Virus record (IMG/VR): IMGVR_UViG_2778261691_000003
Span: 1-19,783 of that record
Reading direction: 5' to 3' (one strand)
Source: a virus
Taxonomy: Duplodnaviria; Heunggongvirae; Uroviricota; Caudoviricetes
DNA length: 19,783 nucleotides
In this document: piece by piece, positions 327 to 19,210 of the stretch
How the letters are laid out: every line of letters starts with the position of its first letter
Numbering within the stretch: position 1 is the stretch's first letter
Notes under the pieces: model-generated
The model's database searches: none
Told to the model about the DNA's origin: nothing
The model's input: the letters and a program-made list of their open reading frames with translations, nothing else
Position numbers and translations under genes: made by a program

Positions 327-881
327 TTAGCCCATTATTTTTCTATACGCCTCTGCAGCCTGCTCCGGCGTTAAGTTGGTAATTTCTGTTCTGACTGGTC
401 CTCCGTCAGCACCAGTCACTTCATTTTTGACATTGTCTTTAAACGCCTGAACAGAAACATGACGCCCGAGCAACTCAAGGTTTTTAACCTTATCAGGCCA
501 TTTGATTTTCTTCAGGAGAGCAGCACTATCTGCTGATGCCATCTCGACGACATCCATTCCTGATAGCGTTGTACGCCACACCTTAGGCCAGTCTTTAATC
601 GGCTTCAGTTCGCCATTGGCAAGCAGAATGTCAAGCACGTCCATCTGATCGATTTCAATCAGCCGTCGCAATACATAGGCAGCGTCTATACCTACCTCTT
701 CATTGCGTTCAGCCTTTAGCTCAGCAATGCGATCTGCTATGTCAGGTTTTGACAGGTTCTCGCTACCAGTGGCGCGAGCAGTTTTTTCGCTGTAACCCGC
801 CCTGATAGCTGCCTGAGTGGCGTTTAAATCTTTCAGGTACTCACGGGCAAACAGCTCTTGTTTGTCTGTGAGCTTTGCCAT
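327..881 (-). CDS. terminase small subunit (P27/Terminase_2-like)
   Basis: 184 aa ORF; N-terminus [52 protein letters not shown] matches the conserved HTH region of phage small terminase subunits as I recall them; ATG at 879-881. Confidence 0.8.
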
Positions 882-984
882 TGTTGGCTCCGTTTATCCG
901 TTAAAAGGGATATCAGTTAAGTTATCCCGTGTAGGGTATAAGCCATTATCAAAGCCACTCTATAGGGAATGGCTTTTGTAATAA

Positions 985-1365
985 CTACTGTTCGCTTAGC
1001 TTCTGCTTCAGCAAGTAACCTTCGAGCATCCAGATTTTGTTTACAGCATTTTGCCGGGCAATCTTCCGACCAATTTCTGCATCAAAGTTTTCCGGGCTTG
1101 CACAGGCGCTCTCTCCGGTGACGGTGAAGCCATTCTTCAGCACCAGTACGCAGAAAGTGAGCAACTTCAATGGTGATAAATCACGATCGCCTTCTTCTGG
1201 TTTTTCCCTGCCACAATATTCGTTGCTGGAAATGGCACCATTTCGTCCATCATAAGCAGTAAAGTAATGCTCGCTTTTAATCACGTCTTCGATGTGCTGC
1301 GGGGTGATTCGCGGTGCCGTTTGGCCTTTCTCAACGATTTCTTTTTCGATTTGCTGGTCGTTCAT
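985..1365 (-). CDS. Gp49-like phage protein (Phage_gp49_66-like family), function unknown
   Basis: 126 aa ORF with ATG at 1363-1365; sequence pattern recalled from hypothetical proteins found between lysis and packaging genes in lambdoid and Sf6-like phages. Confidence 0.55.
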   Translation of the reverse strand: MNDQQIEKEIVEKGQTAPRITPQHIEDVIKSEHYFTAYDGRNGAISSNEYCGREKPEEGDRDLSPLKLLTFCVLVLKNGFTVTGESACASPENFDAEIGRKIARQNAVNKIWMLEGYLLKQKLSEQ

Positions 1366-1595
1366 AATTATGACCCTGTGGAGTGGTTGCTTGATTAGGA
1401 TGTCTTTCCATCAGTCCGCCACCACAAAGAATCTTTTTTGCCATAAGGCTGGAGGTTCATCTTTCAGTGGCTGCCAGTGTTATTTCCCCACTTACTGGCT
1501 TGGGTTGTTTCGCTGTACTGCCGTAACTGGTTGCCCAGAATAAATCCCGGTTTCATTATCAAGCCCACCCGTAGATAGGCTTTGTAATAACATCT

Positions 1596-2120
1596 TCAAT
1601 TAATCAGCAGTTCAGGCTGTGTCACCTGCAAGATGTATTCATGCTCGACAGCCAGGACACGCTTCTCTTTCTTCCGTTCGTTCATTAACCGACTGCCGAT
1701 CGTGCCTTTCAGCTTTGAGCGTGTTTCTTTGATGGCGTAGCGGTGCTGCATTTCTTCGCCAATTGCCATGCGGCGGCTCAGTTGCTCTGCCATCCAGTTG
1801 AATGCTGCGATATAGCTCTCCTTGATTGCCGCAGCAGCTTTCCCGGTGAACCCCATCACAACCATGATCCAGCCATCTTTCGTCAGGCTGTACATCGGGC
1901 GAACCTTGCCCTGTTCATCGATATAATCAGCCGACGCAAAATTGCGTTGGCTAAACTCACGCGAGCAATCAGCCTTAACCCGCTCGATTTTCCTGAGAAC
2001 ATCACCGTGCCGCTTGCCGAAGTACTTGGCAATTTTTCTGGATGTGGTAACGACCTCTCCGTTTTTGGCTTGCACCATTTCTCGGAAGTCGAAGGCTGGA
2101 ATAACTGAATGATTATTCAT
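1596..2120 (-). CDS. rha: Rha-family phage regulatory protein (antirepressor-like)
   Basis: ORF track gives 1596..2189; I place the start at the internal ATG 2118-2120 (MNNHSVIPAFDFREMVQAKNGEVVTTSRKIAKYFGKRHGDVLRKIERV), preceded by AAGG; this N-terminal region is typical of Rha proteins. Confidence 0.8.
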   Translation of the reverse strand: MNNHSVIPAFDFREMVQAKNGEVVTTSRKIAKYFGKRHGDVLRKIERVKADCSREFSQRNFASADYIDEQGKVRPMYSLTKDGWIMVVMGFTGKAAAAIKESYIAAFNWMAEQLSRRMAIGEEMQHRYAIKETRSKLKGTIGSRLMNERKKEKRVLAVEHEYILQVTQPELLIN

Positions 2121-2267: not shown

Positions 2268-2291
2268 AAAAAAGCCCCGCGAATGCGAGGC
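2268..2291 (-). terminator. rho-independent terminator candidate downstream of lysis cassette
   Basis: On minus strand: stem GCCUCGC, loop AUUC, stem GCGGGGC (7 bp including one G-U), followed by UUUUUU (plus 2268-2273 is AAAAAA). Confidence 0.55.
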
Positions 2292-2465
2292 TAAATCCTG
2301 GTGTTTGTAATGACTGGCTCTTATCTCAACGCAGCCCCTTACCGCGCGCCATATGCTTAACTTCAAGCATCAGCAATGAGATGTTTAATCTGGATTCACT
2401 CCAGAAGTGATCACCACCCTGTCTACAGAGCCAGATGTGAAGGATGATGAGTAAAATTATCGCTA

Positions 2466-3955: not shown

Positions 3956-4031
3956 TGGTGCTGGTTAACGGACTTGAACCGCTACCCATTCGCTTACAAG
4001 GCGACTGCTCTACCATTGGAGCTAAACCAGC
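3956..4031 (-). tRNA. tRNA-Thr (anticodon UGU), phage-encoded
   Basis: 76-nt minus-strand sequence GCTGGTT TA GCTC CAATGGTA GAGC A GTCGC CTTGTAA GCGAA TGGGT AGCGG TTCAAGT CCGTT AACCAGC A CCA. Perfect 7-bp acceptor stem, 4-bp D stem, T-loop TTCAAGT, encoded CCA; anticodon loop CUUGUAA gives UGU. Confidence 0.75.
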
Positions 4032-4036
4032 ATGTT

Positions 4037-4111
4037 TGGCGGGACAGCGTGGGCTCGAACCACGATAAGAAGGTTAACAGCCTTCCGTAATGACCTTTAT
4101 ACGACTGACCC
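4037..4111 (-). tRNA. tRNA-like gene, possibly tRNA-Asn (anticodon GUU), atypical
   Basis: 75 nt: GGGTCAG TC GTA TAAAGGTCAT TAC G GAAGG CTGTTAA CCTTC TTAT CGTGG TTCGAGC CCACG CTGTCCC G CCA. Perfect T arm and anticodon stem, but one U-U mismatch in the acceptor stem and only a 3-bp D stem; lies 5 nt upstream of the tRNA-Thr. Confidence 0.45.
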
Positions 4112-10783: not shown

Positions 10784-10853
10784 ATTATCACCGCTAGAGG
10801 TAAAATAGTCAACACGCACGGTGTTAGATATTTATCCCTTGCGGTGATAGATT
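10784..10853. promoter_or_regulatory. right operator region: OR1-OR2-OR3 with divergent PR (towards cro) and PRM (towards cI)
   Basis: OR1 10786-10802 (TATCACCGCTAGAGGTA), OR2 10810-10826 (CAACACGCACGGTGTTA), OR3 10832-10848 (TATCCCTTGCGGTGATA). PR -35 TTGACT and -10 GATAAT on the minus strand; PRM -35 TAGATA and -10 TAGATT on the plus strand. Confidence 0.85.
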
Positions 10854-12640: not shown

Positions 12641-12703
12641 AACCATCTGCGGTGATAAATTATCTCTGGCGGTGTTGACATAAATACCACTGGCGGTGAT
12701 ACT
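12641..12703 (+). promoter_or_regulatory. left operator region OL3-OL2-OL1 with pL promoter
   Basis: OL3 12641-12657 (AACCATCTGCGGTGATA), OL2 12661-12677 (TATCTCTGGCGGTGTTG), OL1 12685-12701 (TACCACTGGCGGTGATA); -35 TTGACA 12675-12680, -10 GATACT 12698-12703; these match lambda OL/pL, and the sequence diverges from lambda downstream. Confidence 0.85.
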
Positions 12704-19139: not shown

Positions 19140-19210
19140 CAATCCTCGCACTCGCGGGGATTTCTTTTATCTGAACTCGCTACGGCGGGTTTTGTTTTAT
19201 GGAGATGATT

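Follow-up and report, generated by a model that had tools for sequence, protein, structure and literature searches.

Two repeats in the late operon of a lambdoid prophage are copies of a conserved RNA hairpin family at cistron boundaries with likeness to RNase III sites of phage T7

The window analyzed here, the whole stretch of 19,783 nucleotides (nt) of the IMG/VR virus record IMGVR_UViG_2778261691_000003, is part of a lambdoid, P22/Sf6-like prophage, and the late operon that contains the two short repeats described in this report lies on its minus strand. According to the list of open reading frames (ORFs) and to matches in Pfam and PHROG, this operon comprises, all on the minus strand, the genes for holin (3713-3390), endolysin (3406-2930), and Rz (2933-2466), a rha-like gene (1596..2120; PHROG 518, Rha-like regulator, E 4e-78) with a TGA stop codon at 1598-1596, an accessory gene cassette of the Phage_gp49_66 family (985..1365; Pfam PF13876, E 3.4e-35) with a TAG stop codon at 987-985, and, as the first structural gene, the gene terS for the small terminase subunit (327..881; Pfam Terminase_2, E 8.9e-40). 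An earlier note on this DNA had described an element of about 40 base pairs (bp) that is repeated directly after the two moron genes, rha and gp49, and adjoins their minus-strand stop codons. This description holds for both copies. Copy 1 reads GTTATTACAAAAGCCATTCCCTATAGAGTGGCTTTGATAATGGC on the minus strand (985->942) and starts with the G of the gp49_66 TAG, with the start of terS 59 nt downstream of it. Copy 2 reads GTTATTACAAAGCCTATCTACGGGTGGGCTTGATAATGA on the minus strand (1591->1553) and starts 4 nt past the TGA of rha. The similarity of the copies is beyond chance, as the 14-mer GTTATTACAAAGCC has three matches with at most two mismatches compared with an expectation of 0.15, and none of 200 shuffles reaches three. 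The pair escaped ungapped repeat finding, owing to indels between the copies.

Both repeats are copies of a conserved, strand-specific family of RNA hairpins located at cistron boundaries. The hairpin nature of the copies, which is absent from the earlier note, was found by folding. The minus-strand hairpin of copy 1 (type 1; 941..986) has a folding free energy of -20.6 kcal/mol (z -4.9) and consists of the lower stem AGUUAUUA/UAAUGGCU, which takes in the AG of the UAG stop codon, an internal loop CA/GA, the upper stem AAAGCCAUUC/GAGUGGCUUU, and the terminal loop CCUAUA. The minus-strand hairpin of copy 2 (type 2; 1553..1590) has a folding free energy of -17.3 kcal/mol (z -3.9), with the lower stem UUAUUA/UAAUGA, the same internal loop CA/GA, the upper stem AAGCCUAUC/GGUGGGCUU, and the terminal loop UACG. 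Folds of the plus strand are weaker (-15.8 kcal/mol for copy 1 and -7.7 kcal/mol for copy 2), because several of the stem pairs are G-U.

Further copies were collected by a pattern scan of viral contigs, followed by a covariance model, termed model R1, that was built from 37 distinct copies. About 58 viral contigs were found to carry some 80 copies between them, so that the motif recurs at gene boundaries of related phages and the likeness of the two window copies is no chance similarity. With filters off, model R1 finds exactly two sites in the 19.8 kb window, copy 1 (59.6 bits) and copy 2 (61.4 bits), both on the minus strand, and everything else is at noise level; the window copies belonged to the training set of the model, and the independent support consists of the approximately 80 copies elsewhere. 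The shared architecture is a lower stem (N)CAUUA/UAAUG(N), a 2x2 internal loop with CA opposite GA, an upper stem of 9-10 bp starting AAG...CUU, and a loop of 4-6 nt, which gives a total helix length of 16-20 pairs.

The upper stem is highly variable but compensated, as in the arm pairs AAGGGUAUC/GAUGCCCUU, AAGCGUCCU/GGGCGCUU, AAGGCCACC/GGUGGCCUU, and AAGCCUCU/GGAGGGGCUU. On a MAFFT alignment made without reference to the structure, pairing extends to 96% of the cells and double (compensatory) changes occur at 9 of the 16 pairs, values that none of 500 shuffles reaches; when the partners are slid by 1-3 columns, pairing drops to 28-48%. U-G pairs make up 78 of 591 cells (about 13%) and correspond to C-A mismatches on the opposite strand. 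The spacing of the arms varies between 35 and 39 nt. Covariation of the inner stem, variable spacing, and the 13% of G-U pairs therefore argue for a structure of the sense-strand RNA and not for a binding site on duplex DNA. A further example is the HK022/P22 version of copy 1, GGUUAUUGCAGAGGCCAUUCAAUGAGUGGUCUCGACAAUGGC, which differs from the window copy by paired changes in the lower stem (A-U to G-C) and in the upper stem (AAAG/CUUU to GAGG/UCUC). Rfam holds no family for the hairpin: only two tRNAs reach the gathering score in the window, and nothing better than E 2.9 is found in 850-1700 (a non-significant Proteo-phage-1 match at 1469-1504). Thus, the hairpin could be described as a new RNA family.

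In 52 of the 84 collected copies, the element starts no more than 10 nt from the stop codon of an ORF on the same strand, and in about 35 of these 52 the first paired base directly follows the stop codon. The proteins encoded upstream form 21 clusters without relationship to one another at E 1e-5. The nearest sequenced relatives of the window stretch 850-1700 include Sf6 (98% identity), phage Huey, and IME10, and 221 phage records match some part of it. Homologs of both window copies are present in Sf6 as well as in HK022, and one copy was detected in P22 (BK000583, 40304-40355). A 42-nt BLAST query with copy 2 alone matched 179 phage records, including HK97, HK022, HK620, ES18, Sf6-like, and Stx2 phages. 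In lambdoid phages of E. coli, Salmonella, and Shigella, the copies are located between the lysis genes and the gene for the small terminase subunit or a DUF2560 gene, and the genes upstream of them are rha, gp49_66, the gene for a phrog_875 protein, a small gene after Rz, and others.

Copies at other late genes extend this distribution. In two viral contigs (L019 and L073), and in Morganellaceae prophages of Morganella, Proteus, and Xenorhabdus genomes, a copy directly follows a gene for a major tail protein. In Pectobacterium phage Gaspode, a Phimunavirus of the Autographiviridae within the T7 supergroup, a copy (47.4 bits and E 6e-10 with model R1) directly follows the gene for the major head protein and also precedes the ribosome-binding site of a tail gene. 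Matches were obtained in 37 Pectobacterium phage records and, among the matches listed, all of these are T7-supergroup phages of this kind. A pattern scan of genome contigs gave at least about ten real copies from Enterobacterales among the matches listed, most of which are chance matches. A search of lambda (44-48.5 kb) and of the K-12 prophages DLP12 and Qin found no copy of the element. Since DLP12 and Qin lack the element, published RNase III maps of K-12 cannot be used here.

Two other explanations of the element were considered and rejected. Copy 2 overlaps an ORF of 35 amino acids and the P22 record has an 'orf25' over its copy, which might suggest a coding function; these small ORFs are not conserved, the HK022 version has no ATG, and the reading frames differ. 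A packaging site was rejected, as the element is shared by cos phages (HK022, HK97) and pac phages (P22, Sf6) and also follows capsid and tail genes.

The hairpins coincide with joints of the mosaic phage genomes. The match of Sf6 to the window stops at the 5' edge of copy 2 (base 1591), and one and the same hairpin type is joined to differing upstream genes and to several differing downstream flanks. Hybrid copies are found in the contigs L012 and L101, in which rha is followed by a type 2 hairpin and then by the downstream flank of type 1 (GGCUUAUACCC...), and in L007, in which a type 2 hairpin with the type 1 downstream flank follows a phrog_875 gene. These arrangements look like the product expected from a crossover inside UUGAUAAUG, which is shared by the window copies; such a crossover would be expected to lose the spacer described below together with the gp49 cassette. 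A conserved sequence at which homology starts or stops is also what characterizes lambdoid boundary sequences and mosaic joints. In all nine collected cases gp49_66 genes are followed by a type 1 hairpin, and in eight collected cases rha genes are followed by a type 2 hairpin. Each gene family keeps its own hairpin type, which implies that the hairpins move along with cassettes, as their 3' ends. The earlier note had suggested a duplicated regulatory site as one possibility; there is no local duplication, as each type recurs elsewhere beside its own partner gene. Its proposal of a module-boundary sequence, at which morons were recombined in, gains support from the at least 21 unrelated families of upstream genes, from the end of Sf6 homology at the edge of copy 2, and from the hybrid copies, whereas its other proposal, a promoter or operator, is not supported (see below).

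The region between the two copies shows the same exchange of cassettes. Copy 2 is followed by a conserved non-coding spacer of about 155 nt (1399..1552, minus strand), which ends in GGAAAGACATC and is near-invariant in 18 distinct phage versions aligned by eye. At least four alternative continuations follow this end motif: HK022 and P22 directly have the next hairpin, the window and Sf6 have the gp49 cassette, and at least two other genes occupy this place in other phages. Between the same flanks, the gp49 cassette is absent in HK022 and P22. Because the spacer of HK022, and apparently that of P22, in which only the downstream hairpin was detected, is directly bracketed by hairpins, it could be released as a discrete small RNA by cleavage at both. 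A second hairpin, GGGAUAACUUAACUGAUAUCCC followed by UUUU (903..928, minus strand), was found by sequence and folding between copy 1 and the start of terS; it is part of the conserved downstream flank of type 1, which is present in about 30 collected copies. Motifs similar to GGGATAA/TTATCCC recur in other downstream flanks (L021, L096, L099, L110). In phage phiv205-1 (L003), a gene for an HNH homing endonuclease (824-1264) is located between the DUF2560 gene and the gene for the large terminase subunit, which is another sign of the plasticity of this interval.

The closest likeness to a characterized element is found in the RNase III sites of T7 and T3. For comparison with the lambdoid copies, the early intergenic regions of T7 were folded. 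The T7 site R1, AGGUCAUCUGCGGGUGGCCU, agrees with copy 2 of HK022, AGCUCAUCUGCGGGUGGGCU, at 18 of 20 positions, both differences flipping one G-C pair to C-G, and the stem-loop of window copy 2 also resembles this site. T7 R1.1, AAGGUCAUUC-GCAA-GAGUGGCCUU, agrees with window copy 1, AAAGCCAUUC-CCUAUA-GAGUGGCUUU, at 8 of 10 positions on each arm, and the arms of T7 R0.3, AAGGGUAUC...GGUGCCCUU, are both identical to those of the copies in L019 and L073 (18/18). Near-identical upper stems, such as AAGGGUAUC/GGUGCCCUU, CAUCUGCGGGUG, and CAUUC...GAGUG, are thus shared with the T7/T3 sites (R0.3, R0.5, R1, R1.1, R1.3, R4.7, R18.5), and the T7-type upper stem AAGGUC...GUGGCCUU occurs in the family. 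Like these sites, both window copies are located between genes of a polycistronic phage transcript, here those of the late operon, and fold on the mRNA-sense strand, with an internal loop between a lower stem and an upper stem of about 10 bp.

Searches with model R1, which was built from lambdoid copies only, point in the same direction. On the whole T7 genome, the sites R1, R1.1, the TE terminator, R18.5, and R0.3 occupy ranks 1-5 and R0.5 occupies rank 7. When the first 8 kb of T3 were searched together with stretches of P22 and lambda, the top three T3 matches were the annotated sites R1.3, R0.5, and R1.1. The argument rests on this coincidence with known sites; the ten sites make up, by our estimate, less than 1% of the searched sequence. 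When 21 distinct lambdoid arm pairs were searched against T7 with at most three mismatches in 18 nt, they matched at 13 positions, whereas 30 dinucleotide shuffles gave about 3.6 positions on average and at most 9; 8 of the 13 positions fall on RNase III sites and one on TE. The T7 cleavage coordinates used (890, 1468, 3138, 5887, 13892, 36856) are reportedly those of Dunn and Studier (1983). They are supported by the T3 record, in which the homologous hairpins are annotated as 'RNase III recognition site' R0.3, R0.5, R1, R1.1, and R1.3, and the RNase III sites of T7 and T3 align with one another.

Two related hairpins were observed in T7-like phages. The early region of Gaspode (L252) contains an intergenic hairpin, AAGGCAUCUGCGGGUGCCUU (2649-2668), which matches in the upper stem only (15.7 bits, E 0.11) and has the core CAUCUGCGGGUG that is common to T7 R1 and copy 2 of HK022. 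The TE hairpin, GGCUCACCUUCGGGUGGGCC, of T7 (L125, 7561-7582) and T3 (L126, 7647-7666) resembles the upper stems of RNase III sites as well as lambdoid variants such as AAGCUCACCUGCUGGUGGGCUU. Judged from these sequences, terminator and processing hairpins of these phages may share an origin.

Taken together, the most likely interpretation, with about an even chance of being correct, is that the hairpins act as intercistronic processing or stabilizer hairpins of the RNase III type, which are carried along with gene cassettes and provide joints for recombination. The hairpin would form in the late-operon transcript directly after the stop codon of the upstream cistron and, by analogy with T7, would be recognized by host RNase III. 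Because the cut in T7 R1.1 lies 13 nt 3' of the loop, the analogous cut on the 3' side is predicted about 13 nt 3' of the terminal loop, in or beside the CA/GA loop, near the junction GAU-AAUG. It would leave a protective 3' hairpin on the upstream message, which would thereby be stabilized, and free the downstream message, so that expression of an acquired gene would be uncoupled from that of its neighbors. RNase III cleavage, the position of the cut, and the stabilizing or insulating effect are what we infer here. At the level of DNA, the hairpin would move as the 3' end of a gene cassette, and its invariant lower stem and loop would provide 9-15 nt of identity between otherwise unrelated DNA. 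Crossovers would fall there, which would explain why cassettes such as the gp49-like one are gained and lost exactly at the elements; no special enzyme would be required for this role. RNase III is favored because of the likeness in sequence and structure to the T7/T3 sites and because of the helix of 16-20 pairs, and a host factor is indicated by the occurrence of the element in phages that differ in RNA polymerase and have unrelated gene sets. Stabilization of the upstream message would agree with the location of copies behind major head and tail genes. Late RNA of lambda is reportedly processed by RNase III near its 5' end.

Several observations weigh against this interpretation. The E-values of model R1 across phage families are weak (0.02-4.6) and the matches cover the upper stem only; the T7 TE terminator also scores, and part of the signal is thus general hairpin likeness. 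The reciprocal model R2, built from 12 T7/T3 sites, places the window elements at ranks 1, 3, and 4 of six window matches with E 0.3-3.9, the best match being the plus strand of copy 1, so that this result counts as weak support for the likeness to T7. The internal loop of the lambdoid copies is a symmetric 2x2 CA/GA in nearly all cases, whereas that of T7 R1.1 and R0.5 is an asymmetric CUC/UAUGA, and such a larger asymmetric loop, which in T7 sites confines cutting to a single strand, is not found here. In addition, the lambdoid family has a conserved lower stem of its own, CAUUA/UAAUG, and its copies adjoin stop codons in late operons of temperate phages, where cleavage is only predicted. 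In the lambdoid hairpins, both pairs that lie between the predicted cuts are A-U, whereas sites of double cleavage in vivo usually have a G-C pair there (PMC6212723); this may mean T7-like cleavage of a single strand, weak cleavage, or binding without cleavage. Conservation of the lower stem in the seed alignment is partly due to construction, because the seed pattern contained the conserved lower-stem sequences ATTACAAA and TTGATAATG; model R1 still recovered the lower-stem variants ATTGCAGAGG...CTCGACAATG, ATCACAAAAG, ATTCCAAAG, and TATTACAAAG...GATAATA, some of them with compensating changes. Finally, homology breakpoints plotted as a histogram are most frequent at the edges of both copies, but the sample is biased, as the loci were chosen for containing the element, and the histogram is therefore not independent evidence.

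Structure and position of the hairpins would be explained equally well by a hairpin that acts without RNase III, as a passive barrier to 3' decay, a pause site, or a weak termination signal, and stabilizes the upstream cistron or sets the ratio of upstream and downstream products without being recognized by a specific endonuclease. The placement after major head and tail genes fits such a differential stabilization of abundant products, and the TE terminator hairpin of T7 resembles the family. A hairpin of this kind would have no need of an invariant CA/GA loop, of the CAUUA/UAAUG lower stem, or of a sequence-level likeness to RNase III sites, and as a terminator it would be expected to carry a U-run after the stem, so that this explanation appears rather unlikely. 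The terminator scan called neither of the two copies, and what follows their stems is GAUAAUGG and GAUAAUGA, not a U-run. The conservation of the CA/GA loop and its neighboring pairs beside a freely varying upper stem would also suit an RNA operator, at which an RNA-binding protein of phage or host reads the internal loop and lower stem and controls how the adjacent genes are translated or how stable their messages are; in several contexts the ribosome-binding site of the next gene follows closely downstream of the hairpin. No candidate protein co-occurs with the element, which is spread over lambdoid phages, T7-supergroup phages, and Morganellaceae prophages with unrelated neighbor genes. This makes an operator of this kind quite improbable as a separate explanation and a host factor the likelier reader, RNase III itself being one.

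Mosaic flanks and hybrid copies alone would be compatible with an element that acts only as DNA, either a boundary sequence for recombination or a small mobile palindrome of the REP or MITE type, without a role at the RNA level. GTAG or GTAA stands before many copies, and TTAC occurs within the element, which presumably recalls the target motifs of REP/RAYT and IS200/IS605 systems. In the 52 copies with an abutting upstream ORF on the same strand, the hairpin is in sense orientation and GTAG or GTAA is the stop codon of that ORF. For this reason, together with the strand-specific fold, a mobile hairpin similar to REP/RAYT or IS200/IS605 was rejected as the main explanation; no transposase gene is present among the flanking ORFs examined, a dedicated search for RAYT genes not having been made. 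Since recombination driven by homology needs no pairing, the compensatory changes that keep the pairing, and the frequent G-U pairs that restrict the structure to one strand, render a purely DNA-based role improbable. Least probable is the regulatory proposal of the earlier note, namely a duplicated sigma-70 promoter with the -10-like GATAAT, or else an operator on the DNA to which Rha or a host factor binds. As a -10 hexamer GATAAT is reasonable, and a gene lies downstream of each copy, but a scan for sigma-70 promoters (-35/-10 with a spacing of 16-18 bp) called no site on either strand at 941-986 or 1553-1590, and a -35 hexamer at the right distance is absent. GATAAT is in fact the 3' arm of the lower stem and reads GACAAT in HK022 and P22, where the partner base has changed with it. 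Variable arm spacing and covariation of the inner stem do not fit a promoter or DNA operator either, and the element is also found in phages without rha and in phages that use their own RNA polymerase.

Some known elements of phage genomes are comparable to the hairpin family in part. The lambdoid boundary sequences (bsq), which are annotated in Sf6 and HK620, are likewise short conserved sequences at mosaic joints. Boundary sequences are not known to be defined by a conserved RNA structure. The Sf6 record annotates bsq features, and neither Sf6 copy of the hairpin is among them; the only one in the stretch of Sf6 examined, bsq7, is located inside Rz. A moron of HK97 or HK022 is said to be a gene flanked by its own promoter and an intrinsic terminator. 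The cassettes described here resemble such morons as accessory genes between lysis and packaging genes with a hairpin at the 3' end, but their hairpin lacks a U-run and was not called as a terminator, and no promoter was found for the cassettes. The closest conceptual parallel are the promoter-early stem-loops (PeSLs) of T4-type phages, in which a composite of an early promoter and a stem-loop terminator flanks variable ORFs (PMC2839356, PMC4122927). In both cases, a short conserved stem-loop motif flanks variable ORFs and provides a crossover point for the shuffling of cassettes. PeSLs differ in combining promoter and terminator and in being located in early hyperplastic regions, whereas neither a promoter nor a terminator part was detected here, only the cassette-flanking stem-loop, and there is no sequence relationship.

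No description of the hairpin is contained in the annotated records of P22, Sf6, HK022, HK97, and HK620, and none was found in full-text literature searched by topic and by literal sequence, a coverage that leaves out older subscription papers. The element fits the intercistronic RNase III-type hairpins of phages and is a putative member of the T7 site family. A more far-reaching proposal, which is put forward tentatively and is rather doubtful, is that the hairpins are natural insulator parts: lambdoid phages and virulent phages of the T7 supergroup would share one family of RNase III sites that physically separates each acquired cassette from the message beside it and whose invariant core is a preferred crossover point for the gain, loss, and exchange of accessory genes. 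The T7 sites R1.1 and R0.5 have been used as insulators in synthetic constructs (PMC3643576). If the insulator proposal were correct, one RNA element would explain why accessory genes are expressed autonomously as well as where mosaic joints are located in lambdoid late operons. Provided that the hairpins are RNase III sites, phages of the P22, Sf6, HK97, and Stx types would process their late transcripts between accessory and structural genes, a step not found in the annotations of P22, Sf6, HK022, HK97, and HK620 or in the searchable literature. This would offer testable mechanisms for the context-independent expression of newly acquired accessory genes and for the places where the joints between lysis and packaging genes fall, and it would link regulatory RNA elements of virulent T7-like phages with those of temperate lambdoid phages.

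Further features were observed in the window. Within the late operon, between a small ORF after Rz and rha, a strong hairpin resembling an intrinsic terminator (2273-2292, minus strand) has eight pairs, six of them G-C, followed by UUUUU. In the phages L016, L057, L114, and L120, this terminator directly adjoins a type 1 hairpin, and a near-complementary copy of it is located at 19144-19173 of the window. The two tRNA genes (3959-4031 and 4040-4111, minus strand) are located upstream of the holin gene in the leader region of the late operon. An inverted pair of sequences at 10786-10815 and 12672-12701 with TATCACCGC...GGCGGTGATA is similar to lambda operators and probably belongs to OL and OR, the regions on either side of the immunity genes.

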